A stretch of DNA of 64,000 bases from Heptranchias perlo (GCF_035084215.1 NC_090340.1:3100001-3164000), one strand, 5' to 3'; positions 6,799-59,579 are shown, counted from the stretch's first letter. Program-made: numbers and translations. Notes: a model not told the origin generated them from the sequence alone.

Positions 6799-7411
6799 AT
6801 GGAGTGATTTGCTGCAGAAGAACTGAGTGAGGTGCTATGGTAAGTGCTGAGGTGTACTTTAACGTGAAAAATCGTCCACATGTTTACCTACTCACTTATG
6901 CTGATAACACAATAGATGTTTCCAATAAATGACGGCGTGATAACCGTAATTGAATTAAGGTGTTACTGGGATTCTTTTGTATCTATTGCCTATCGTAATT
7001 TATATGTCCAAATATTCTCAGTTCACTGGATCTGTGGAGAGCAGTTGGTAACGGTTCCTTGACTGTGTTCATATTACTATTGTACTTTTTGAAATGTTAC
7101 GTGTAGTCCAGTATTATTTTATTCAATAATATTATCTAAAAAAAAGTATATTTGTACAGAATCTTTCATGACCTCAGGATGTCCCAAAGCGCTTCACAGC
7201 CAAGGAAGTAATTCTGAAGTATAGTCACTGTTGTAATGTATGAAACGAGAAGCAAATTTGCCGACAGCAAGGTCCCACAGACGGCAATGTGATAATAACT
7301 AGATAATCTGATTCTAATGAAGCTTGAAGGATAAATATTGGCAAGGATATTTTGGGAATATTCCCCTTCTTTTCTTGGAAATCGTGACATGCGATCTTTT
7401 ATGTGAACATT
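6799..7411. repeat. Left arm of 613-bp inverted duplication
   Basis: Reverse complement of 7666-8278; mirrored ORFs 7166-7459(-) and 7687-7911(+) are near-identical. Confidence 0.95.
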
Positions 7412-7498
7412 TGTTTTGTTTTCGATCACGCTTCCATTTCTTAAAATAAATCCCAACAATGGGTTAATGTTTACAAATGGAAAATATACTTAGATATG

Positions 7499-7935
7499 CC
7501 AGCCGAGGCTCAGTGGTAGCACTCTCGCCTCTGATTCAGAAGGTTGTGGATTCAAGTAAAACTCCAGAGACTTGAGCAGAAAAGCTCGGCTGGTACTCCG
7601 GTGCAGTACTAAGGGAATGCTGCACTGTCAACGTTGCCTTAAATGCGAGGCCCCCTCTGCAATCTAATGTTCACATAAAAGATCCCATGTCACGATTTCC
7701 AAGAAAAGAAGGGGAATATTCCCAAAATATCCTTGCCAATATTTATCCTTCAAGCATCATTAGAAACAGATTATCTAGTTATTATGACTTTCACGTCTGT
7801 GGGACCATGCTGTGGGCAAATTTGCTTCTCGTTTCATACATTACAACAGTGACTATACTTCAGAATTACTTCCTTGGCTGTGAAGCGCTTTGGGACATCC
7901 TGAGGTCGTGAAAGATTCTGTACAAATATACATGT
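7499..7935 (+). mobile_element. tRNA-derived Deu-domain SINE (SacSINE1/AmnSINE1-like)
   Basis: tRNA-like head (GGCTCAGTGGTAGCAC...GGATTCAAG); Deu-type body (TAAAAGATCCCATG, GCCAATATTTATCC, CAGATTATCT, CATTACAACAGTGACT); tail AAGCGCTTTGGGACATCCTGAGGTCGTGAAAG. Family name from recognition, not a search. Confidence 0.8.
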
Positions 7936-8278
7936 TTTTAGATAATATTATTGAATGAAATAATACTGGACTACACGTAACATTTCAAAAAGTACAAAAG
8001 TAATATGAACACAGTAAAGGAACAGTTACCAACTGCTCTCTACAGATCCAGTGAACTGAGAATACTTGGACATGTAAATTACGATAGACAATAGATACAA
8101 AAGAATCTCAGTGACACCTTAATTCAATTACGATTATCACGCCTTCATTTATTGGAAACATCTATTCTGTTATCAGCATAAGTGAGTAGGTAAACATGTG
8201 GACGATTTTTCACATTAAAGTACATCTCAGCACTTACCATAGCACCTCACTCAGTACTTCTGCACCAAATCACTCCAT
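7666..8278. repeat. Right arm of 613-bp inverted duplication
   Basis: AATGTTCACAT...CACTCCAT mirrors ATGGAGTG...ATGTGAACATT at 6799-7411. Confidence 0.95.
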
Positions 8279-33073: not shown

Positions 33074-33559
33074 GATCATACAAGATAGAATCATAGAGCA
33101 TACAAGGAGGCCATTCGACCCATCGTGGCTGAGCTGGCTCTGAAAGAGCTATCGAATTAGTACCACTCCCTCATTCTTTCTCCATTACCCTGCAGAGTTT
33201 TCATTTTCAAACATATATCTAATTATCTTTTGAAATATATATCGAATGTGCTTCAACCGTTTCAGACAGTATATTCCTGATCATAATAACTCGCTACATG
33301 AAACAAATTCTTCCCATCTCTTGTCAGACTATATTGTCCTGACAACAACTGGTTATAATATTGTACTACTACAGTATGGTAGTGTTTTTTTTTTATTTGA
33401 ACAAAAGCAAGGATTAATACATGCAAGTATTTAAGCAAGTAATTTTCAAAGAACAAGGAATCATATTACTCCATTGTCCTTTGGGTGGACATAGTAACTT
33501 AGTCACTGCCACGAATCCGGCCTTCTTCCTTCATGCTAAGCTGTCTTCCTTCTCTACAA

Positions 33560-34801
33560 TTGTCTGGCGCGTATATTACTTGCCACCTATGAGCCCAAGC
33601 CTGGATGTCGTCCAGGTGTTGCTGCATGCGGGCTCGGACTGTTTCATTATCTGAGGGGTTGTGAATGGAACTGAACATTGTGCAATCATCAGCTAACATC
33701 CCATTTCTGACCGTTTGGTGGAGGAAGGTTATTGGTGAAGCAGCTGATGTTGGTTGGACCAAGAACACTGCTGCAGCAATGTCCTGGGGCTGTGATGATT
33801 GACCTCCAGCAACCATTACCATCTTACTTTGTGCTAGGTATGACTCCAGCCACTGGAGATTTTTCCCATTGTTTCCCATTACCTTCAATTTTACTAGGGC
33901 TCCTTGGTGCCACACTCGGTCAAATGCTACATTGATGTCAAGCGCAGTCACTCTCACCTCACCTCTGGAATTCAGTTCTTTTGACAATGTTTGGACCAAG
34001 TCCGTAATGAGATCTGGAGCTGAGTGGTCCTGGCGGAACCCAAACTGAGCATCGGTGAAAAGGTTATTGGTGATTAAGTGCCGCTTGATAGCACTGTTGA
34101 TGACACCTTCCATCACTTTGCTGATGATTGAGAGTAGGCTGATGGGGCGGTAATTGGCCTGATTGGATTTGTCCTCCTTCTTGTGGACAGGACACACCTG
34201 GGCAATTTTCAACATTGTCATTCTCGGCAAAAATGTGCCAATATTGGTGATTAGCCGGGACAGTGAAAAAGCAGACAATAACAGAGATGCATGTTAAACA
34301 GCGGAAGCAACATCTATAGACCGAGCGAAGCGATTCGATTGTCAACAATGTTGTAGCTGTACTGAAACAGTTTGGCTGGAGGCACGGCTAGTTCTGGAGC
34401 GCAAGTCTTCAGCACTGCAGCCGGGATCTTTTCGAGGCCCATAGCCTTCGTTGCATCCAGTGCACTCAGCCGTTTCTTGGAGTGGAGTGAATCGAATTGG
34501 CTGAAGGCTGGCTTCTGTGATGGCGGGGATATCGGGAGGAGACCGAGATGTGACATCCACTCGGCTCTTCTAGCTGAAGATAGTTGCAAACGATTCAGAG
34601 TTGTCTTTTGCACTCACTTGCTGGGGTCTGCCATCATTGAGGATGGAGATGTTCATGCAGCCTGCTCCTCCCTTTAGTTGCTTAATTGTGCGCCACCATT
34701 GACGACTGGATTTGGCAGGACTGCAGAGCTTTGATCTGATCTATTCGTTATCGAATCGCTTAGCTCGGTCTATAGATGTCGCTTCCGCTGTTTAGCATGC
34801 A
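33560..34801 (-). mobile_element. LINE family B RT segment (probably the same insertion as 32513-33073)
   Basis: Minus ORFs 33499-34278 (NYRPISLLS, FDRVWHQG, LADD) and 34342-34560. Confidence 0.9.
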
Positions 34802-34868
34802 TCTCTGTTATTGTCTGCTTTTTCACTGTCCCGGCTAATCTCCAATATTGGCATTTTTGCCGAGAATG
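34219..34868. repeat. ~120-bp inverted repeat pair (34219-34339 and 34750-34868)
   Basis: CATTCTCGGCAAAAATG...GCGATTCGAT vs ATCGAATCGC...CATTTTTGCCGAGAATG. Confidence 0.92.
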
Positions 34869-34974
34869 CGTTGCCTTCCACACACTATGTGGAATGGGAC
34901 CGATCTATCTGCTAATTCCGGTTTGTCCATTGACCCTGCTAATTTCCATTATCTGTTAATGACCTCAGGATGTG

Positions 34975-35098
34975 ATCAACTGTTCTTGAAAGCAACTTTA
35001 ATTTCTTCATTCTAGTTGTGGAAAAATACTGACTCTGTTAGAAAAGCAGTAAAAACTGGATAGACGATTGAATAAATGTAATAACTTAAACTAAAATA
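34975..35098 (-). repeat. Candidate 3' LTR remnant of the ERV (direct repeat of 48478-48625)
   Basis: CTGTTCTTGAAAGCAACTTTAATT..GTGGAAAAATACTGACTCTGTTAGAAAA..GGATAGA..GAATAAA..TAACTTAAACTAAA matches 48478-48625 with ~20-25% divergence by eye. Confidence 0.5.
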
Positions 35099-35104
35099 AG
35101 GGGC

Positions 35105-35946
35105 TTACAATTTTTAAGCACCTCATCTAACCTGTCCTCCCCCCTTCAGGGATTTGTGGACATACACTCCAAATTCTCTTTGTTCCTCTACATCTTTCAG
35201 CATCCTCCCATTTATTGTGTACTCCCTTGCCTTGTTTGCCCTCCCCAAATACATTAGCTCACACTTCTCTGGATTAAATTCCATTTGCCACTTTTCTGCG
35301 CACCTGACCAGTCCATTGATATCTTCCTGCAGTCTAAGCTTTCATCCTCACTATCAACTGCACGGCCATGTTTTGTATTATCTGAAAACTTCCTGATCAA
35401 ACGCAACACATTCAAGTCCAAATCATTAATATATAACACAAAAAGCAAGGTACCTAGTACTTAGCCTTGCAGAACCCAACTGGAAACAGCCTTCTAGTCG
35501 CCAAAACACCATTACCCTTTGCTTACTGCTACTGAGCCAATTTTGATCCAACCAGTCACTTTACCTTGGATCCCATGGGCTTTTATCTTTTGACCAGTCT
35601 GCCATGTGGGGCCTTGTCAAAGGCCTTTCGAAAATCGATCTACACTATGCGTTACCTTCATTGACCCTCCTTGTTACCTGCTCAAAAATTCATTCAAGTT
35701 AGTCAGACACGACCTTCTCTTAACAAATCCATGCTGACTCTTCTTGATTAAACCATGACTTTCTAAATGACGATTTATGCTTTCCCTCAGAATCGATTCC
35801 AATAAGTTGCCCACCGAGGTTAGACTGATTGGCCTATAATTACTCGGTCTATCTCTTTCTCCCCTTTTGAAAAAACAGTGCAACGTTAGCCGCCCTTCAA
35901 TCCGATGGCACCACGCCTCTAGCCAGGGAGGATTGGAAAATGATGG
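35105..35946 (-). mobile_element. CR1 fragment
   Basis: Minus ORFs 35254-35448 and 35674-35883 (NYRPISLTSVG..SQHGFVK). Confidence 0.85.
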
Positions 35947-36039
35947 TTATCATTCACCTCGCCGTAATAACTGTGGATAGGAGTGCTCGCTTCCCAAGTC
36001 TATTCGTAACCTAATTTCCGTAGCCAATTTGTTGATCGG

Positions 36040-38505
36040 TTAATGCACCGTCCTCAGCCAACAGCACAACGAAAGCATTAAGACAACCAACACTATTGGT
36101 CCAATCAGCAAGACAACGATGAGATGTAACAGTAAATTAATTATCCCAGTAGCAGAGCTAGATCATCCAAAGAATAGCCCGCACCAATGGTGTTACGTTT
36201 GGGTCTTAACGCGCTCAAGAACCTTCTGGATATGTCTTCCATCATGATGGACAGTTACGACCGTCGCCTTAGCATCACTTTCTACTGTATGCAATAGTTT
36301 CACTAACTCCTTATGCTGTAAAAGTTGTCGCAATAGTTCCAGGTTCATTCCCAATACGACAAGTTCTATGCGTTCATAAAAAGTATAATTCTGAATCATG
36401 AACTGTTGAGTACATGGTGGTGTAGCCATTTTAAAATCACATCCACCACCGCCCCCCCCCCCACCCCCCAACCATCGCAGTAATATTGCAAGCACATACA
36501 TTGTTCCCATTTGGGTATTCTAAGAACGCTTCATTAATTGTTGTACTTGAACAGGTGGTACGCAGACATATACCCCTTCCCTACATATACGACTTCAGAT
36601 TTTCTTCCCCTATCTTATTTATGATCAAAAATACCTGCCTCCTGTCCCATCTGGGGATAAAAAGGATCACCAGTCTCAAGTATACTTCATGAACAGGTAA
36701 ATCCAAGATCTCTTTCCTGTATGCATGCCTCCAGTGATATATGTCACATTTTGTTCTAATTAGACTTATTATAGGTTAAATGCTCGCATTGTTCAAAGTT
36801 AATACTTACCCTACAAGAGTGTTCAGGTTGACATCATATATGAAGTTTACCAATTGCCAACAAGTCTGCCATTTACGTTCAAACTCTGAGGCGCTATCTA
36901 ATATAATCCTTCGCATCTCTGGGGATAAAATTCCTTTTTCCCCATCCCTTTTCTTACCCATCACCACAATTTGTAGCCGTGCTTGGCCTTGTGTATGGGA
37001 AATTGCTAAGAATACATTCTCTTGATCCATACCTCGTGCTTCAACAAAAACTGATGATCTTTTTCATTCTCATGTTTCAAATCAAGGAACAGATGTGCTT
37101 GCATCCAGTGACCCATTGCCAATTTCTCTGAGGAGGTGAACAGGGGTTTTGCCATATCCCTTATTGAGTGCCATCTATTCTAATTTATTCGTCAATGTTT
37201 CCACATTCACACTATTCAAAACTCCGAGCGCAGCAACTGTTTCTCCCAATACTGCACCCAGGATATCACGTTTACCACGTGTATGCGATTTTTAAGATTG
37301 ATATTGCAACATCGGTTTTAATAAACGTGGTGCACATCGCTTTTATTGAGGAAATAATAGCTCCTTTTAGGGATATTACTATTTTCTTCAGGATCCTACT
37401 AGGATTCACCATTAATCCTTGTGGTGTATTCGCTTGTACCACATATGGTTGAAGCCATGTTACATTTGGTGTCATTGCTGGTAAAACGGGAAAATTCTGT
37501 AAAATTGGAAGAACATAAATAGTCCATAACCCACCCATTTCTGCTCTCATGCGGGCCTTATTTCCACCATTACAACACACATTTAACTGTACATGTAATG
37601 TGTTGTTACGCCATCCATAATCACGTTTATTCAGGCTCCCGAGGTAAGGATTTGTGCTGGAAGTATTACCTAATCTTTGTTGTACAATTCAAACTAAAAG
37701 TCAGAGCCTGACCATCTGGACTCATCGTGATGTTATAATTTGGCCCATTTAATTTCTTTAGTCCTACTTGACTATATCTTACTTCTATGCTAAGGTCGTT
37801 ATCGAGTTTTGCACACAAGGGGTTATTCCATATTACAAAATGACATTTATAATACACGGCTACTCAAACGTCAATACATAGTTCCCATACTTTTAAGTGC
37901 CATGTCCTCAACAATCCCGAATCTTTTGCCATGGCCACACCCTCGTCCCAGTAGAGGATATATTTAAATCAGATGGTGGAATATGTAAACGAAACGAACC
38001 GATTTGTGCTAAGTAACTTTGGGAAATTTAAGAATCTGTTTACAAAGTATTTCCAGAAAGAAGTAAAACCCTCTGAGTATGAGGTAGGAGATGTAGTTAT
38101 GGTTTTGAATTATGAGAAACGAGAACACGTATTTGAGCCGAAATAGGAAGAAGCCTCGCACCAGTAAACATCGTAAGCTGTGGTGTAGGTAGTTGATGGG
38201 TCAAAGACCAGTACTGAGCAATTTCTGGAATCCGAGTTTGACGCTGCCTGTCGACCGTTTCTTTTCTCCGAAGGCAGGGGCATATTGCCATGACAGGTCC
38301 AAATTCTAGAGGTGTTTTGCTTTTCATTATCTTTCAACGTTATTCCACCAACCTCGTGTGATGCCTCTTGTTAACAAATGATGATGGGCACCGGGGCAGT
38401 GTTGGTCTCAAAACTTCGTTGTGCCACATTAGACCAGAGGACATATTAAGTCTCCCAAATCCAGCCATGAATTACAACCCATAGACTCATGAATATCCGT
38501 AACAT
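36040..38505 (-). pseudogene. env: ERV env, class I fusion glycoprotein remnant
   Basis: Possible signal MLRIFMSLWVVIHG at 38505; furin site RGKR (37268-37279) followed by fusion peptide DILGAVLGETVAALGVLNSVNVETLTNKL; helical LELLRQLLQHKELVKLL; HHWCGLFFG*SSSATGIINLLLHLIVVLLIGPIVLVVLMLSLCCW membrane anchor at ~36060-36192. Confidence 0.85.
37960..38155 (+). repeat. Inverted copy of ERV integrase C-terminal region inserted in env
   Basis: Plus strand translates QMVEYVNETNRFVLSNFGKFKNLFTKYFQKEVKPSEYEVGDVVMVLNYEKREHVFEPK, matching minus-strand MVLNYGEREHVIEPKWKEPF at 41565-41657. Confidence 0.85.
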
Positions 38506-38539
38506 CTTTCTTCTCTTGGGTCAGTTAATTTGATTAAAA

Positions 38540-41462
38540 TCGGACGGACCACCCGGCATCGGACCACGAGGCACCGGACACGACAAAGGCAAACCAAGCC
38601 CAGTCGATCCTGCAAAGTCGTACTCACTAAAATCTGGGGACTGGTGCCAAAATTGGGAGAGCTGTCCCACAGACTCGGAAAGCAACAGCCTGACAAAGCC
38701 ATACTCACAGAATCAAACCTTTCAGCCCATTTCCCAGACGCTTCCATCACCATTCCTGGGTATGACCTGTCCCACCGGCAGGACAGACGCACAGGAGGCG
38801 GCGTTACGGTGATATACAGTCAGGAGGGAGTGGCCCTGGGAGTCCTCAACATTGACTTTGGACCACATGAAATCTCATGGCACCAGGTCAAATATGGACA
38901 AGGAAACCTCCTGCTGATTACCACCTACCGCCCTCCCTCAGCTGATGAATCAGTCCTCCTCCATGTTGAACACCACTTGGAGGAAGCACTGAGGGTAGCA
39001 AGGGCACAGAATTTACTCTGGATGGTGGACTCCAATGTCCATCACCAATAGTGGCTCGGTAGCACGATTACTGACCGAGCTGGCCGAGCCCTAAAGGACA
39101 TAACTGCTGGACTGGGTCTGCGGCAGGTGGTGAGCGAACCAACACGAGGGAAAAACTTACTTGACCTCGTCCTCACCAATCTACCAGTCGCAAATGCATT
39201 TGTCCATGACAGTATTGGTTTGAGTGACCACCGTACAGTCCACGTGGAGACGAAGTTCCGTTTTCGCACTGAGGACACCATCCAACGTGTTGTGTGGCAC
39301 TACCACCGTACTAAATGGGACAGATTCAGAACCGATCTAGCAGCTCAAAACTGGGCATCCATGAGGTGTTGTGGGCCATCAGCAGCAGCAGAATTGTATT
39401 CCAGCACAATCTGTAACCTCATGGCCGGGCATATTCTTCACTCTCCCATAACCAACAAGCAAGGGGAGCAACCCTGGTTCAATGAGGAGTGTAGAAGAGC
39501 ATACAAGGAGCAGCATCAGGAGTAACTAAAAATGAGGTGCCAACCTGGTGAAGCTACAAGTCAGGACTACATGCATGCTAAACAGCGGAAGCAACATGCC
39601 AGACACAGAGCTAACCGATTCCACAACCAGCGGAACAGATCAAAGGTCTGCAGTCCTGCCACATCCAGTCGTGAATGGTGGTGGACAATTAAACACCTAA
39701 CGGGAGGAGGAGGCTCTGTAGACATCCCCATCCTCAATGATGGCGGAGTCCAGCACGTGAGTGCAAAAGGAAAAGCTGAAGCGTTTGCAACCATCTTCAT
39801 CCAGAAGTGCCGAGTGGATTATCCATCTCGGCCGCCTCCCGATATCTTTAGCCAATTCGATTCACTCCACGTGATATCAAGAAACGGCTGAGTGCACTGG
39901 ATACAGCAAAGGCTATGGTCCCCGACAATATCCCGGATGTAGTACTGACGACTTGTACTCCAGCACTAGCTGCACCTCTAGCCAAGCTGTTCCAGTACAT
40001 CTACAACACTGGCATCTACCCGACAAAGTTGAAAATTGCCCAGGTATGTCCTGTCCACAAACAGGAGGACAAATCAAATCCGACAATTAAGGCCTTATCC
40101 GTCTACTCTCAATCATCAGCAAAGTGATGGAAGGTGTCGTCGACAGTGCTATCAAGTGGCACTTACTCACCAATAACCTGCTCACCGATGCTCAGTTTGG
40201 GTACCGCCAGGACCACTCGGCTACAGACCTCATTACAGCCTTGGTCCAAACATGGACAAAAGAGCTGAATTCCAGAGGTGAGGTGAGAGTGACTGCCCTT
40301 GACATCAAGGCAGAATTTGTCCGAGTGTGGCACCAAGAAACCCGAGTAAAATTGAAATCAATGTGAATCATGGGGAAAACTCTCCAGTGGCTGGAGTCAT
40401 ACCTCGCACAAAGGTAGATGGCAGTAGTTGTTGCAAGCCAATCATCTCAGCCCCAGGACATTGCTGCAGGAGTTCCTCAAGGCAGTATCCTCGGCCCAAC
40501 AATCTTCAGCTGCTTCATCAATGACCTTCCCTCCATCAAACTCCAGAAATGGGGATGTTCGCTGATGATTGCATAGTGTTCAGTTCCATTCGCAAACCCT
40601 CAGATAATGAAGCATTCCGAGATCGCATGCCACAAGACCTGGACAACATCCAGGCTTGGGCTGAGAAGTGTCAAGTAATATTCGCGCCAGACAAGTGCCA
40701 GGCAATGACCATCTCCAACAAGAGAGAGTCGAACCACCTCCCCTTGACATTCAACGACATTACCATCGCCGAATCCCCCACCATCAACATCCTGGCGGTC
40801 ACCATTGACCAGAAACTTAACTGGACCAGCCATGTAAATACTGTGGCAACAGGAGCAGGCCAGAGTCTGTGTATTCTGCGGCGAGTGACTCACCTCCTGA
40901 CTCCTCAACGTCTTTCCACCATCTATAAGGCACAAGTCAGAAGTTTGATGGAATACTCTCCAGTTGCCTGGATGAGTGCAGCTCCAAAAACACTCAAGAC
41001 GCTCGACACCATCCAGGACAAAGCAGCCAGCTTGATTGGCACCCCATCCACCTAACTAAACATTCACTCCCTTCACCAACATCGCACAGAGGCTGCAGTG
41101 TGTACCATCCACAGGATGCACTGCAGCAACTCGCCAAGGCTTCTTTGGCAGCACCTCCCAAATCTGCGACCTCTACCACCTAGAAGGACAAGAGCAGCAG
41201 GTACATGGGAACAACACCACCACCACGTTCCCCTCCAAGTCACACACCATCCCGACTTGGAAGTATATCGCCCTTCCTTCATCTTCGCTGGGTCAAAATC
41301 CTGGAACTCCCTTCCTAACAGCACTGTGGGAGTGCCTTTAACACACGGACTGCAGCGGTTCAAGAAGATGGCTCACCACCACCTTCTCAACGGCAATTAA
41401 GGATGGGCAATAAATGCCGGCCTCGCCAGCGACGCCCATATACCATGAACGAATAAAAAAAA
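38540..41462 (+). mobile_element. LINE family B, near-complete ORF2, inserted between ERV IN and env
   Basis: ORFs 38530-39051 (APE: ILTES, TTYRPPS), 39127-39525, 40124-40366, 40549-41055 (MFADD), 41098-41400; A-tail at 41455. Confidence 0.95.
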
Positions 41463-41464
41463 TG

Positions 41465-42130
41465 AGCTGATTAATATGGTAGCATTTAATAACCTTTGTC
41501 TCTCCTTTTCCTGTATACTCTATGAAGTACACATCCAGATTTGCTCTGTCTACTGTGGGAAATGGTTCTTTCCATTTAGGCTCGATAACGTGTTCTCGTT
41601 CCCCATAATTCAGAACCATAACTGCATCTCTACCTCATACTCAGTTTTACTTCTTTGCGGTATTTTTTTTTCAATATTAACCAAACAATGCAATAGCCTG
41701 AAGGCATCTGTTGTAAAAGGCTCATGAATTCAATCTGTTAACGTGTCCGAGGTCCCTCAGGGGGAGATGCACTTGGAAGGAACGCACGATTGGTGTGTAA
41801 GGCTGGAATGTGTTGTAGGCATACTAAACATCTCACTGCATCATGAATGAAGTCGTCTTTGCTTTCTGGCCACCAAGCAACTTTTTGGATTTTATGCACT
41901 GTGGTCTCTGCAGAAAAGTGACCAACCACGACATGATTGTGGAACATGTCAAAGAATTCGTCAGCCAGTGTCGGGGAAACACAGAGAATTGGGAAAGATT
42001 CGGACGTGGATTGATACAGAAGTAAGGAGTGTGCATAATCGCCTTGCGTGGCTTCATGAGACGATGTTTTGGGTTGAGATAACGGTTTAATCCCTTGGTG
42101 CCACACCGTGGTTTACTCATACAATGGCCA
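41465..42130 (-). pseudogene. pol: ERV integrase remnant (HHCC finger and C-terminal GPY/F-like module; DDE core deleted)
   Basis: FHNHVVVGHFSAETTVHKIQKVAWWP..CLVC; PPEGP then jump to GDAVMVLNYGEREHVIEPKWKEPF..YHINQL. Confidence 0.85.
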
Positions 42131-42138
42131 GGACATTA

Positions 42139-42630
42139 TTAAGGTGTGCAAGTCGAATTTGATGGAATCACCAGCAATGGCACAGACACGGCCATTTGAG
42201 AATGGACCAAAAGGATACTCGTTGTGTGCGGCCTCGATGGCAGCCTTGTTGGGTGTAGATCGGATCCTTTGGTGTGGGCCTTTACCTTACCGATGAAGTA
42301 TGGCTGCCTTCTATCTCTTATTATTCTAAATACGTCACCATATACCAGTAATTTCCCATCAGAGATATGGTAGTTATTCTTGCAATATGGAGGAATTGAT
42401 AGCGTAGTATTGATAGCGTAGGCACTGTCAGACCAAATATTAATAGGTTGGCCGGTTGTTTCAATTACAGCTGTCAAGAGCGCGGCGATTTCAGAAATTT
42501 GTGCTGTGTGTGGTTCGCACGTCTGTTGCATAATTTTTTTCAGGGAGGATGCTGCAAAAGCCTTAAACAGTCCCCCTTTTTGTTGAAATGAGGAACCATC
42601 GACATCGACATCTGTAACACCCTCCAACGG
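42139..42630 (-). pseudogene. pol: ERV RNase H (retroviral type)
   Basis: VDGSSF..HTAQISEIAALL..INIWSDSAYA..KVKAH. Confidence 0.9.
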
Positions 42631-42659
42631 CGTCTTTTAAACTGGGTTATTACCCAAGT

Positions 42660-43255
42660 CTAACATGACGTTCTCCCAGGTTTTGTAACAACTGTGGTGG
42701 AAGAGTTGTCTGTTTCGGTGTAATGTCGACATATCATTCCTTCAACTAAAATGTCAAGGGGCTTAAAGGAGCATGTGATACCAACGTGTCTCTCAGCTTC
42801 ATCAATAGTTTGGGTGCAGTGTGCACGGAGTGGAGCACGAAAGTTCTCAATTCCCTGATGGAAGTAAATTATTTCACAGCCCAAAAGGTGGCGGTCTTTC
42901 ACACCGGTCCTTTGCCTCTTTCACTCCTGTCAATATTCGCAAGAGCTTGCATTAGACATCTTGACACAGGGCTGCCGCCACACTCTGGACAGTCGCTTCT
43001 ACCTCCACATGAAAAAGCTCGCTTGGAACTGGTGTGATCAGGCACGTTGCTTGTATCGCCATCTTCTTTAGCTGTGGTGCCGCTTTGGTGTGCTGCGAGG
43101 TCCATCTGGACTGCACATCGTCTTCCTTTCCTTTAACAAACTCATACAATGTTTCAGCAAGATCTGCAAAACGCGGTATGAAAGCCATCTGGGATACCAA
43201 CAATCCCAAGAATGAACGGAGCGCTGTCAAAGATATTGCCAAAGGTAATCACTGC
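42660..43255 (-). pseudogene. pol: ERV RT thumb and tether (degenerate first RNase H)
   Basis: LRSFLGLLVSQMAFIPRFADLAETLYE..WTSQHTKA..LKK..FHVEVEAT..AALCQ. Confidence 0.85.
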
Positions 43256-43261
43256 ACAGAA

Positions 43262-46175
43262 GTATAGAAATGTACAAAATAGGAGCAGCAGTCGATCATT
43301 CTGCCCTTCGAGTCTGCTCCACCATTCAGTGTGATCATGTCTGATCCTCCAACTCAATTGCATATTCCCGCTCTCTCCCCATAAATATTGATGCCTTTTG
43401 TGTTGAGAAATCTATCTAGCTCCTTCTTAAATATATCCAGTGACTTGGCCTCCCCAGCCTTTTGTGATAGAGAATTCCACAGGTTCACCACCATCTGAGT
43501 GAAGAAATTTCTCCTCATCTAAGTCCTAAATGTTCTATCCCGTATCCTGAGAGTGTGACCCTTCGTTCTGGATCACACAGCCAGGGGAAACATCCTTCCT
43601 GCATCCAGTCTGTCCAGCCCTGTCAAAATTTATATGTTTCAATGAGAGACTCTCTCATTCTTCTAAACTCGTGTGAATACAGGCCGAGTCGACCCAATCT
43701 CTCCTCATACGACTGTCCTGCCATCCCATAAATCAGTCTGGGTGAACCTTCGCTACACTCCCTCTATGGCAACTATATCCTTTGTTCGGTAAGGAAATCA
43801 AAACTGCACACAATACTCCACCAATGCCCTGTATAACTGCAGTAAGCAACCCTTGCTCCTATATTCAAATCCTCTTGCAATGAAGGCCAACATACAATTT
43901 GACTTCCGAACTGCTTGCTGCACCTGCATGTTTGCTTTCAGTGACTGGTGTACAAGAACACCCAGGTCACTTTGTACATCAACATTCACCAATCTATCAC
44001 CATATAAGTAATACCCTACCTTTCTGTTTTTCCTTCCAAATTGGATAACTTCACATTTATTCACATTATACTGCATCTGCCATGTATTTGCACACTCACT
44101 CAAATTGTCCTATTCGCCTTGAAGCCTCTTTGCATCCGTCTCACAACTCACGATCCCATCTAGTTTTGTGTCATCAGCAAACTTGGAAATATTACATTTG
44201 GTCCCCGAATCCAAATCTTTGATACATATTGTGAATAGCTGGGGCCCGAGCACTAATCCCTGCTGTACCTCACTAGCCACTGCCTGCCACCCCGAAAAAG
44301 ACCCATTCATTCCTACTCTCTGTTTCCTGTCGGTTAGCCAATTTTCAATCCATGCCAGTACATTACCCCCAATCCCATTTGCTTTAATTTTGCACAGTAA
44401 CCTCCCATGTGGGAGTGTATCAAAGGTCTTTTGAAAATCCAAATAAACCACATCCACTCGTTCTCCATTATCTATTCTACCAGTAACTTCCTCAAAAAAC
44501 TCCAATAGGTTTGTAAAACATGATTTCCCTTTCATAAATCAATGTTGTCTTTGTCTAATCCCGTTGATATTTTTAGTGTCCTGTCATCACGTCCTTTATA
44601 ATAGACTCTAACATTTTCCCTACTACTGATTTTAGGCTAACTGGTCTGTAGTTCCCAGTTTTCTCTCTCCCTCCTTTTATAAATAGTATGGTTACATTTA
44701 CCACCCTCCAATCTGCAGGAACTGTTCCATAATCTGTAGAACTTTGGAAGATGTCAACGAAAAAATGCAGCCACTATTTCCATGGCGACCTCTTTCAGTA
44801 CTCTGGGATGCTGATGATTAGGCCGTGGGGATTTATCGGCTTTCAGTCCCATTCATTTCTGCAGCACTATTTTTTTACTGATACTAATTTATTTTATTTT
44901 ATCCTTCTCACTATTCCCTTGGTTCCTGAGCATTTCTGGGAAGTTATTTGTGTCCTCTTCCATGAAGACAGAACCAAAGTATTTGTTTAATTGTTCTGCC
45001 ATTTCCTTGTTCACCATTATAAATTCTCCCGTTTCTGACTCTAAGGGACCTACGTTTATCCACACTAATTTTTTTTCTTTTTACATACTTGTCGTAGCTT
45101 TTACAGTCTACTTTTAATTTCCTTGCAATTTACTCTCATACTCTATTTTTGGTATCTCAATCAATCTCTTGTTCCTTTTGTGCTGAATTATATTCTGCTC
45201 CCAATCCTCAGGCTTGCTACTTTTTCTGGCAACATTGTATGACTCCATTTTGGATCTAATACTATCCTTAATTTATTTTGTTAGCCAAGGTTGGGCCTCA
45301 TTTACTTTTGTGTTTTTGAGCCAGAAAGGAATCGATAATTGTTGCAATTCATGCATTTGTCCCTTAAATGTTAGCCACTGCCTTTCCACCTTCATGCCCT
45401 TTAATGAAGCTTCCCAAACTATCATAGCCAACTCACTCCTCATACCTTCGTAGTTTCCCTTGTTTAGATTTCGGACCCTAGTTTCGGATTGGACCACTTC
45501 ACTTTCCATCTTAATGAAGAATTCGATCATGTTATGGTCACTCTTCCCTAAAGGACCCTGCACAACAAGAATATTAATTAACCTCTTCTCATTGCACATT
45601 TCCCAATTTAGGATAGCCTGTTCCTTGGTTGGCTCCTCAACATACTGGTCTAAAAAAATCTCCACAGTATTAATGCTCATTTCTTTTGGCCATTCTATAT
45701 GCAGATTGAAGTCACCCATGATCTCTGTAGCACCCTTGTTACATGCATCTCTAATCTCCTGCTTGATCCCATCCCCTACATTACCACCACTGTTTTGAGG
45801 CCAATAGACAACTCCCACCAATAATTTTTGCCCTTTGGTGCTTCTTAACTCCACCCAGACTGATTCCATATCTTGATTTTCCAAGCCAATAGCCTTTCTC
45901 ACTATTGCTCTGATTTCATCCTTTACTAACAACGCCACCTCACCTCCATTTACTTTTTGCCTGTCCTTCCTAAAATCGAATGCCCTTGGATATTCAGCTC
46001 CCAGCCTCGGTCACCCTTCAGCCTTGTCTCTGAAATTGCAATTATATCATATCCGTTTACCTCTATTTGCGCTGTTAATTCATCTAACTTATTCAGAATG
46101 CTTCGTGTATTCAGATACAGTGAATCTAGATTTGCTTTTTTAACATTTTTAGACACATAAACATTTTTTGTACTG
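43262..46175 (-). mobile_element. CR1 family A LINE, near-complete ORF2, inserted in ERV RT
   Basis: Minus ORFs 45950-46156 (LYLNTRSI..IAISET), 45273-45938 (MGDFN, LGKSDH), 44110-44535 (KFADD), 43798-44103. Confidence 0.95.
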
Positions 46176-46214
46176 TGGCCTATTATGATTTATTCTTTGT
46201 GCTGATCTGGAGTC

Positions 46215-46870
46215 TGTCCAGCAGCAGATATGGACATGCTCAGAAATGTCATTTGTTCCTGTAGCAGCTGAACCTTTCGAGGGTTAAGTTTTAATTCCAC
46301 TCCTTTTAACATGTCGAACCGCTCTTCCAACACCAGGAGATGTTGCTCCTTTGCTCCGGAGCTAGCAGCAATTCATCTAACATGCTCTCTGGCTTAAAGA
46401 AACCTTTGATGACCTTTGCCATTCGCTTCTGGAAGATCGCGCAGCGTTATGAAATCTCTATATGAAGTGCATGTATAACTCTGATCTTCAACGGTAAAAG
46501 CGAATTTACACTGATCTTTTCTTATGGGTATGCTCGAAAATCCATTAGCTCTGCCACGTTCGAAAACCATTTGTCACTTGGTGGAGTTTGGGATAACAAC
46601 GTTGGTGTTTCCTTACACTGGTGAGCAAGTGAGAGTTACCGAATTTAACTTACGATTATCAATAGTTCATCACCATCTACTGCTTGTTTTCTTAACTGGC
46701 AAAATTGGAGAATTTGCAGTCAGTGTCCCAAATCCAACAATACCCTTCCATACTAACGACTGAACTGTAGCCTCGACATATGGATGGCTTTCTTTAGGAA
46801 TTGGATGCTGTTTTGAAAATAGATATGGAGTCCATTCATGGACTTCTCTCTTTCCATCCGTCCACAATCA
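46215..46870 (-). pseudogene. pol: ERV reverse transcriptase remnant
   Basis: HPIPKESHPYVEATVQSLVWKGIV..NSPILPVKK..W; ANGFSSIPIRKDQCKFAFT; FHN..AIFQKRMAKV..LDELLL (degenerate YxDD); LKLNPRKVQLLQ. Confidence 0.88.
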
Positions 46871-47039
46871 TATTTACTGCGGGAAAATATGAATGCCCAT
46901 TTTTGAAGCATATTTTGTACCTCATGTCCTGGTGGACCAGAAAATCATGCACCTCCTTTTTCTTAATCGAGAACACTGAATGCATATCTGAAATCTCGAC
47001 AACCAACTTACCAGCAGGCCAAACCACAGACGTCAATAA

Positions 47040-47350
47040 TGAACCCGCATTGATCTAAAACGTCAGTTCCCAATATACCTCGCCCATCGCATTTCTACCA
47101 CAGTACGTTGTTTATGTTCCGCACCCTGTAAAGATATCTGAAACAAGCTCAATTGAAAAGCATACAGTGACGATCCATCAAAACCTTTAAATGCATTCGC
47201 TTCCCTCTGGCCGCAGCGTAGATTAGGGGAAATGGAGTATGAATGATGGTTCCCGCTGATTTTGTGTCTATTACCATCATCAGTTGTTGGCCCCCATCAG
47301 TAACAACAGGTACAACAGGTCTAACATGGCCGTCACGTCGGAACTCCACT
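47040..47350 (-). pseudogene. pro: ERV aspartic protease remnant
   Basis: LMMVIDTKSAGTIIH (degenerate D-T-G) between gag and RT. Confidence 0.7.
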
Positions 47351-47399
47351 GTCGATTTCGTCGAGGGTCCCGACTCCCTTTATTGTTGGCCCGGATTTT

Positions 47400-48480
47400 G
47401 TCCTTCAGGCGCAGATGAAGGAGTGGGAGCTATGGCAATTTCCGCCACTTATTTAAATTAGCCCATAATTTAACTGGTTGTCAGTAGTGCCAGTAATTTG
47501 GTCAATTTATCCTCGGCGGTATATGACCGAAGTTCCAGTTTTTGGGAGTACCGAGGTGGTGGAAGAGCTGGGTAGCTGTCCCTTCCCTGTCTACAATCTC
47601 GCCAAAATGTCTCATTTTGCAACAATTGTAACATTGTGGTCCCCTATTTCCTAATCCTGACCCTTTATTTGGTCCCCAGTTATTCATATCCTTCTGTGGT
47701 TCCTCAAACACGGACACTAGTTTCCTCTCGTTCTGGAATTTTGCGGCCCTCCCGTTGGTGTGGCGATGTGTCCTTCTACATTATCCCAGGCTGAATAGTA
47801 TCAAGTTTTCGTCCCACCTATTATTTTTACAGATAGCTACTGATAAACATTTATTTAAACAGGTTATCCTTTCGCCGATCAGACGGCACGTGGTTTGCTG
47901 GCACAAGTACTGGCTGAGATGGCACAATTAGTTGTGTCATTTCATATACATCAAGCAATCCATTTGTGAACGCGGTAGAGTGCTCTGTAGGTTCCTGTAC
48001 CGTCAAATTTAAGGTGTTTATTCCCAACAAATCTACTATTCCGCCAAACATCACATCGGGCCCACTTACTGCATAAGCGGAAGAGTAAGACATGGCTGTA
48101 AGCCCTCATCCTGGGTGGCAAATTAAATAGTTTTTAAATCATCATCTTATAGTTGAAAATCTCCCCAAGCTCGAGTGAGCAAAATAACGTCATTGCCATC
48201 CTTAATGGGCCCTAAATATCTAACCAAAGCAGCTGCTTCATCTGGTTTGATGGTTTTTATTGTCATTGCGTCTTGACGTAATCGCAACTTGTTGATTAAT
48301 TTTCCCACTGTTGGTAATCACATTTAGGGCTGGCTTATGCAGTCACCGCAGTCGAGATTATGATAACATACTGCATCTCATTCTGACAGTTCCCAATCTA
48401 ATCTATCTCCTCCTCCTGTCGTATTTGCTGACAACAGAGTTGTTTGTTGTCCCACTTGTGCTGAAATATTCTATATTCTG
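47400..48480 (-). pseudogene. gag: ERV gag remnant with CCHC knuckle
   Basis: CYNCCKMRHF then RDC after a 1-nt shift (47593-47633); capsid-like QEPTEHSTAFTNGLLDVY upstream. Confidence 0.7.
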
Positions 48481-48625
48481 ATTGACTGTTCTTGAAAACA
48501 ACTTTAATTACATCAACTTTCCAATCCACCGCTTGTTCGTGGTGGAAAAATATTGAGTCTCTGTTAGAAAAACACTAATTGATGGATAGATTACTGAATA
48601 AAGGAAGTAACTTAGACTAAATTTT
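48478..48625 (-). repeat. Candidate 5' LTR remnant of the ERV
   Basis: Direct repeat of 34975-35098, immediately upstream of gag; minus strand contains ..TATTTTTCCACCAC. Confidence 0.5.
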
Positions 48626-48689
48626 TAATGCATTGAAACACTCTTCGTCTACATTTGAAAGTAAAACCCTTATTACAAAAGATATTCCC

Positions 48690-49125
48690 TCTCAGTCTTC
48701 TATGACTCTTTTGCCACTTATATAAAATATGTGTCCTCTGGTAACTGACCATCCTGACAGTGGAAGCAGTTTCTCTTCATTTACTCCATCAAAGTCCTGC
48801 AAAATTTTGGACGCCACTGTTAAATATCCAGTTAGCCTTCCCTGCTCCAAATAGAACAATTCCAGCTTTTCTAGTTCCTCCACATCACTGAAGCTTCTCA
48901 TCCCTGGTATAATTCTTGGGGATCTCCCTTGCAGCCTCGCCAAGGCCTTGGCATCCTTCCTAACGAGTGGTCTTCAGTACTGGACTTTATGCACCATCTG
49001 GGGCCGAATCGGTGATTTATAAAGGTATCGCTTCCTTGCTTTTTTACTCTATGCCTCTCCGAATAAATTCAAGGATACTGTACGCATTTTCCAACAGCTT
49101 TACAAACTTGCCCCGCTACCTTCAA
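48690..49125 (-). mobile_element. CR1 3' fragment
   Basis: Minus ORF 48692-48943 (IPGMRSFSDVEELEKLELFYLEQGRL). Confidence 0.8.
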
Positions 49126-55661: not shown

Positions 55662-55973
55662 TTGCGCAGGATGTTTCTCGGAATGTCCCTGAATCTGTAA
55701 TGGCGAACAGGGGTGACAATGTAACCTTACACGGCAACGTATCTGGATTCCAGACCAATGAGTACATGAATGTTTACTGGCGTAAGAGCGATTCCAATCA
55801 AACCGTAATAATAGAGTCTGACAACCGCGTAATATCTCGTGTTCGATCGAATGGAACATTTTTCCTTCATCTCCATACTGTGAGTTTCCAGGACTCTGGA
55901 GCCTATCATTGTAGAGTGGCAGTTGGGAATTTCGATTATGTTGATGGATGCGGCACAGAACTGATTGTATGTG
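55662..55973 (+). CDS. Germline-joined VJ-type Ig variable-domain exon of an antigen-receptor-like/SIRP-like IgSF gene
   Basis: Acceptor TTTTTATTTCCGACAG, donor GTAAGT, 312 nt phase 1-1, open. VAQDVS..GDNVTLHG..VYW..LHLHTVSFQDSGAYHC..DGCGTELIVC: DSGxYxC and GxGTxLxV motifs in one exon. Confidence 0.92.
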
Positions 55974-59273: not shown

Positions 59274-59579
59274 TTCCTCCGACGCCTTTGCAGATTTCCT
59301 CCACTGTGTTTAGAAGTGGGTCATCGACTGCTTTGACTCTTGTGTGTAAAACAGCTGCGTTTTTCCCGGAAAAGCTGAACATCAGTTGGTATAAAAATGG
59401 AGCCGAAATTCTGAGCGGGATGGAACGAATCAAAGACCGGAACCCAGCGGGACTGTATAAAGTTTCCAGTTATCTCAATCAAAAAGGTTCGTGTCAGAGC
59501 GGAACCAATTATACCTGTCTGGTATCACACGTCTCTCTCCAGACTGGAGCCAGTGTTCATTACATTTATCAAACTTCAG
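59274..59579 (+). CDS. Ig C1-set constant-domain exon of the same gene
   Basis: Acceptor TTTCTATTTTCTCAACAG, donor GTAAGT, 306 nt phase 1-1, open. LTLVCKTAAFFPEKLNISWYKNG..GLYKVSSYL..YTCLVSHVSL: C1 hallmarks (Cx4FFP, W, YxCxVxH). Confidence 0.95.

Follow-up and report, generated by a model that had tools for sequence, protein, structure and literature searches.

A dead provirus of probable class III-like affinity in an elasmobranch immunoglobulin gene array, and Loki-like pol fragments at other loci of that genome

A decayed provirus outside the lokiretroviruses

Positions 33322-48694 of the window, by which we mean the whole 64,000-nucleotide stretch of the Heptranchias perlo genome analyzed here (GCF_035084215.1 NC_090340.1:3100001-3164000), hold a minus-strand endogenous retrovirus (ERV). 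It is a real and heavily decayed provirus with long terminal repeats (LTRs) and gag, pro, pol and env, as an initial annotation of this DNA had proposed. The same annotation assigned the element to the lokiretroviruses (Loki), and here our data disagree, as its reverse transcriptase (RT) falls outside Loki in our trees. The element is very likely a dead non-Loki provirus of the class III-like group related to snakehead retrovirus (SnRV; clade Huo), together with elements of Xenopus, frogs and the coelacanth. We regard it as an unclassified ERV of the class III-like kind (clade Huo), a further member of a kind that has been described before in a chimaera. Cartilaginous fish are known hosts of class III-like ERVs (PMC4422223, PMC6001957). 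Clade Huo is described as infecting all major vertebrate lineages (PMC6001957), and an ERV clustering with SnRV has been reported from the elephant shark (PMC4422223, Han 2015). As a fossil the window element is of an ordinary kind, and its value lies in its age and context. Of more consequence to specialists are Loki fragments found at other loci of the same genome assembly (G000), which are described below.

Searching G000 with the RT region at the DNA level returned at least 43 matches, and the other copies of the family are 67-84% identical to the window copy. The careful RT tree comprised 32 rows (26 having been dropped from a set of 58, which served only for a quick tree), among them the window piece, two further pieces of its family and six Loki rows. 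A viral contig of 10,688 bases confirmed the identity of the SnRV row (L022). The window piece and the two family pieces formed a clade (support, 100/97) that nested with P0003, a Xenopus Pol protein, and one other row (98/90), inside the non-Loki retroviruses (98/92); the six Loki rows stood apart (100/99). The family also lay outside Loki in the 58-row quick tree and in a tree that included Loki fragments. Forcing the family and Loki together cost 51 log units (approximately unbiased [AU] test, p=1.6e-4).

What the element has in common with lokiretroviruses (PMC7947760) is the gene order, the dual RNase H (a tether plus RNase H) and a long transmembrane (TM) subunit, with a Cys spacing that by eye is like that of Loki Env. 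The arrangement of gag-pol-env between LTRs with tether and RNase H, present in the window family, is common to all retroviruses. Over the start of RT, five of the six Loki proteins show 33-36% likeness to the element, roughly the level seen with SnRV. However, the RT clade and the RT motifs differ: the PFG-type motif of Loki occurred in 0 of 12 family loci, whereas xQG was found in 10 of the 12 (the window gave no alignment, and one alignment was spurious), and the catalytic motif of the family is YVDD. The strings that the initial annotation had taken as marks of Loki (NSPILPVKK, ANGFSSIP..KFAFT and FHN..IF) turned out to be generic or SnRV-type. Moreover, genuine Loki fragments from G000 fall inside Loki in the same tree in which the window family does not. 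We therefore see hardly any chance that the window element is a lokiretrovirus.

When a natural RT frame from one copy of the family was compared with named proteins, the closest came from Xenopus tropicalis (56%), Latimeria (50-53%), Amia (53%) and frogs (46-49%), and identity fell to ∼33% beyond them. Pol proteins of X. tropicalis, Latimeria and frog (P0003, P0006, P0009) are 46-64% identical in RT to family copies, fall in one clade (95/87), and have the same collinear order of protease, RT, tether, RNase H and integrase (IN) as the window family, in different hosts. Loki is characterized by an IN near CGIN1 and an RNase H grouping with those of foamy viruses; by score, RNase H and IN of the window family are much nearer to P0003 (123-155 bits) than to Loki proteins (at most 42 bits). 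No relatives of P0003 were found among the viral contigs searched. SnRV-like elements of X. tropicalis are on record (PMC4131045), and P0003 may be one of them.

Two other affiliations were weighed on the same trees, in which the window-family RT lay among canonical retroviruses (class II being unsampled) and outside the class I, foamy and Gypsy rows. That the element might be a foamy-like ERV (clade Tu) or a member of ERV-L/ERV4 is suggested by the best Protein Data Bank (PDB) match of the RT piece, a foamy RT (8e-8, in a database holding no closer group), and by ERV-L-like rows lying near the family in the 58-row quick tree. The family did not join those rows in the 32-row tree, it has the zinc knuckle that is absent from ERV3/ERV4 according to PMC4299795, and it has YVDD instead of the YIDD given for ERV-L in PMC8278194, so this affiliation seems very improbable. 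A Ty3/Gypsy retrotransposon with an extra open reading frame would account for the closest database entries, which are named 'Gypsy retrotransposon integrase-like' or 'NYNRIN-like'. However, the Gypsy rows were separated from the family at 100/100, and the tether plus a second RNase H also argues against this reading, for which we see practically no likelihood. The 32-row tree thus refuted both the Loki and the Gypsy readings of the window RT. The window RT was not sister to the bird rows in that tree either.

Primer-binding site and Gag zinc knuckle

Downstream of 8 of the 16 5' LTRs of the family, 14-18 of the 18 bases of the SnRV primer site were matched (18/18 in one copy), whereas only 4-7 of 18 matched at 13 3' LTRs. 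We take the SnRV primer to be an Arg tRNA. There is one Gag zinc knuckle, as in SnRV Gag, and it is intact in six other proviruses of the family; in the window copy itself the primer site is deleted and the knuckle broken. Judged from sequence, the primer site and the zinc knuckle point to a probable kinship with SnRV-like viruses. SnRV resembles the window family in primer site, single Gag zinc knuckle and QYVDD-type RT, but its RT is only 35-42% identical to that of the family and is not its sister in the tree. As a separate observation, four loci (L040, L041, L043 and L044) make up a subfamily with another primer-binding site, which suggests a tRNA switch.

Several results weigh against placing the window element in clade Huo. 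The family was not joined to SnRV, and the base of the non-Loki group was an open fork in two trees; because of this fork, the label 'Huo' rests on exclusion together with the primer site and the knuckle. Class II, Odin, CmiERV and fish foamy-like elements were not represented in the RT trees, and the reference rows, drawn from 150 representatives, were labeled by motif match to the Wang and Han RT alignment and not by database names. Over the RT-thumb/tether stretch, Loki proteins matched or exceeded the score of SnRV (35-53 bits versus 38). Two paralogues of the window insertion matched only 12 of 18 bases of the SnRV primer site, and 4 of the 16 family 5' LTRs were followed by a different one. 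Likewise, SnRV Env had no detectable likeness to the window env, profile comparison included, and no target-site duplication was recognized at the window provirus or at the other copies inspected.

Loki fragments at other loci

A Loki RT query against G000, for which 150 of 2040 candidates were scored, gave one outlier at 51% with Loki motifs (L049, C6:98784706-98785293). When L049 was used for a DNA search, five additional sites emerged (C5:87.75, C7:26.84, C7:26.90, C6:105.15 and C8:53.56 Mb). The resulting Loki-like pol fragments (L049, L092, L094, L096, L098 and L100) are short and broken and lie on chromosome-scale contigs. All three that were placed (L049, L092 and L100) nested inside Loki with support of 100/99. 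That tree, from whose Loki clade the window family again stayed out, also serves as a positive control for the placement; L094, L096 and L098 were assigned to Loki by score only. IN ends were seen at two loci on C7, whereas motif scan and translation of the surroundings of the fragments revealed neither env nor gag nor LTRs. We are confident that these fragments belong to Loki.

The initial annotation had supposed that a chondrichthyan Loki copy could fill a gap in the host range. This expectation is borne out by the loci on C5-C8 and not by the window element. Because Wang and Han scored Loki as absent in six of six chondrichthyans (PMC7947760), the fragments close that gap. Chondrichthyan Loki did not turn up in literature searches or in passages of PMC7947760, PMC9040795 (whose supplement is without shark names), PMC4299795, PMC4131045, PMC8278194, PMC10536682, PMC10587355, PMC10435555, PMC12690878, PMC8922424, PMC12440569 and bioRxiv 2021.11.23.469661 and 2023.10.26.564294; outside this scope lie subscription journals, bioRxiv supplements, Repbase and Dfam, as does the breakdown of Loki by vertebrate group across 1,768 genomes in PMC9040795 (its Fig. 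1B). On balance, chondrichthyan Loki remains had probably gone unreported. The fragments fit an old, vertebrate-wide presence of Loki, although cross-species transfer could also have brought them in.

Matches 2-150 of the Loki RT query make up another non-Loki family, which is abundant and younger and has long open frames in pol. The one RT of this family that was put in a tree shares a broad clade with the window family. One copy has LTRs that are 98% identical and an env that is broken by stops, with motifs like those of Loki and SnRV Env by eye and no Pfam match.

Env

The window env (35947-38530, minus strand, with stops and frameshifts) encodes a basic cleavage site, a hydrophobic fusion-peptide-like stretch near 37264, a membrane anchor at 36067-36123 and a TM subunit of ∼390 codons. 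Its Cys spacing (C-x9-C-x10-C) resembles that of the published Loki Env by eye only. These features raise the possibility of a chimera or deep homologue, in which a canonical gag-pol is joined to an env that is F-like (paramyxovirus-like) and belongs to the fold family of Loki Env. Foamy Env is reportedly F-like as well, going by the title of one study, which we count in favor of this idea. Nevertheless, env matched nothing in Pfam (PF00523, the paramyxovirus F family, was absent from nine degraded pieces, with no Loki Env query included), in PDB or in the ESM Atlas. Profile comparisons, including one with the env of the younger G000 family, were negative. The AlphaFold model had a predicted local distance difference test (pLDDT) score of 31.5, too low for use. 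Homologue searches, which covered longer proteins only, returned no match, and a literature search with the env motifs found no type. An F-like env is thus possible, but we think it unlikely. A putative likeness of the window env to that of env-carrying class III ERVs from birds and reptiles was not confirmed by two homologue searches, which returned nothing.

A broader proposal combines two parts. One, likely on its own, is that G000 holds the first chondrichthyan Loki remains; the other is that the non-Loki window provirus is Mesozoic or older and has an F-like env homologous to that of Loki. Taken together, this proposal is in our judgment decidedly doubtful. If both parts were true, they would favor the view that the ancestor shared by Loki and canonical retroviruses had an F-like env, and the insertion, as an orthologous one, could be used for dating across sharks.

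Anatomy of the window provirus

Three-frame translation, Pfam matches and comparison with other copies resolve the element as LTR-gag-pro-pol-env-LTR, cut by four long interspersed nuclear elements (LINEs). The 130-bp end repeats are portions of an LTR of ∼800 bp, for which reason the provirus extends over 33322-48694 and exceeds the 34975-48625 initially annotated. The viral sequence excluding LINEs measures ∼7.4 kb, in agreement with the ∼7 kb estimated earlier, and every gene is broken. The order gag-pro-RT-tether-RNase H-IN-env was upheld by translation and Pfam. Full collinearity was not, as the IN core is deleted and a piece of IN is inverted.

On the 3' side, the R/U5 part of the LTR (33322-33559, minus) is 81-87% identical to 5' LTRs of other copies and ends ...GACA, inside the TGTAAG...CTTACA termini of the family. 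The U3-side part (34804-35104, minus) was assigned by comparison with other copies. Between them lies a LINE fragment (33557-34803, minus; RVT_1 4.6e-19) that is missing from paralogous copies. It adds a fourth to the three LINEs named in the initial annotation, all of which were recovered: one fragment that is repeated elsewhere in the genome (35105-35946, minus; RVT_1 0.0038), one that is 91% identical to another copy (38540-41462, plus; RVT_1 9e-8) and one within RT (43262-46175, minus; RVT_1 9e-13).

The remaining genes lie on the minus strand. The Xenopus Pol P0003 aligned by tblastn to the window pol from protease through the end of IN. IN (41463-42250) retains its H2C2 domain (Integrase_H2C2, PF17921 4.4e-9) and C-terminal end, most of the core having been lost with ∼530 bp deleted at 41660/41667. 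A 200-bp IN piece lies inverted within env (37955-38157, plus; tblastn 1e-11 on the opposite strand, with a reversed match to other copies). RNase H (42260-42660; RNase_H, PF00075 2.9e-9) is followed upstream by the RT thumb and tether (42665-43260; RT_RNaseH_2, PF17919 1e-6; 43-51% to P0003), the broken RT fingers and palm (46180-46850; sequence matches and the RT tree) and a protease remnant (46900-47290; tblastn with P0003 and P0006). Translation places the 3' part of gag at 47300-48457. The CCHC knuckle noted earlier survives there as a remnant (47592-47633) whose last Cys is absent. Of the 5' LTR, only the start of U3 is left (48479-48694, minus, by comparison with other copies), since ∼1.3 kb comprising the rest of that LTR, the primer site, the leader and the start of gag is gone at 48457/48479. 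In this state the window copy would have no present function.

Copies, age and the immunoglobulin array

On C18, between 3.8 and 5.7 Mb, there are six more copies in which one flank or both match those in the window at 69-81%; on account of these flanks, they are duplicates of one insertion. The window also contains a host immunoglobulin (Ig) V-set exon (55685-55969, plus; PF07686 1e-9) and a C1-set exon (59282-59551, plus; PF07654 3e-12), the latter belonging to a tandem array on C18, where 102 of its 116 genome matches lie. This Ig V-C1 array occupies C18 2.7-6.0 and 14.5-15.6 Mb with ∼100 C1 exons and would explain the duplication of the provirus. The central part of env is kept only in the C18 set, and the dispersed copies include two pairs with shared deletion ends, which is what env-less retrotransposition might be expected to leave.

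LTR distances in nine proviruses ranged from 0.011 to 0.179. For the window provirus the distance was 0.18-0.19 over 123 columns, or 0.17 without CpG sites, and the provirus is old. A distance of 0.16-0.19 corresponds to 36-44 million years (My) at the mammalian rate of PMC7947760 and, with the shark rate that PMC4422223 assumes, to 360-440 My; both rates are uncalibrated here, and we adopt neither age. Since sharks mutate slowly (PMC10587355), 36-44 My is a floor. CmiERV lineage I of the elephant shark (PMC4422223), compared by description, also has a cartilaginous-fish host, and its LTR distance is 0.033, that of the window being five to six times greater. In a separate case, the LTR parts of L046/L047 (C13 24.87-24.88 Mb) are 1.1% apart over 359 columns in a copy that is otherwise decayed, reflecting either gene conversion or late insertion.

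These data are consistent with a history in which an env-bearing virus primed by Arg tRNA entered the germ line inside the Ig V-C1 gene array. Duplication of the array would then have carried the insertion along, flanks included, giving at least seven paralogues on C18. Env-deleted relatives may have gone on spreading by intracellular retrotransposition, and the window copy would afterwards have gained four LINEs, two deletions and one inversion. A provirus trapped in a duplicating Ig array, with full env kept only there, could time both the virus and the array.

Host assignment and minor observations

The initial annotation had inferred a cartilaginous-fish host, and an elasmobranch is supported by RAG1 and acetylcholinesterase (AChE). 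RAG1 in G000 (3.25 Gb) is intronless, a single open frame of 1048 codons, and its comparison with PDB excludes a teleost-like gene and nothing more. AChE scored 999 bits against PDB entries that we take to be of the Torpedo type, versus 790 for the next group and ∼698 for mammalian entries. Elsewhere in the window, a 618-bp inverted repeat (6799-7416 and 7661-8278) has arms that are 95% complementary and 244 bp apart. Within the AChE locus (L032:10-2052), a tandem repeat makes an open frame of 680 codons.

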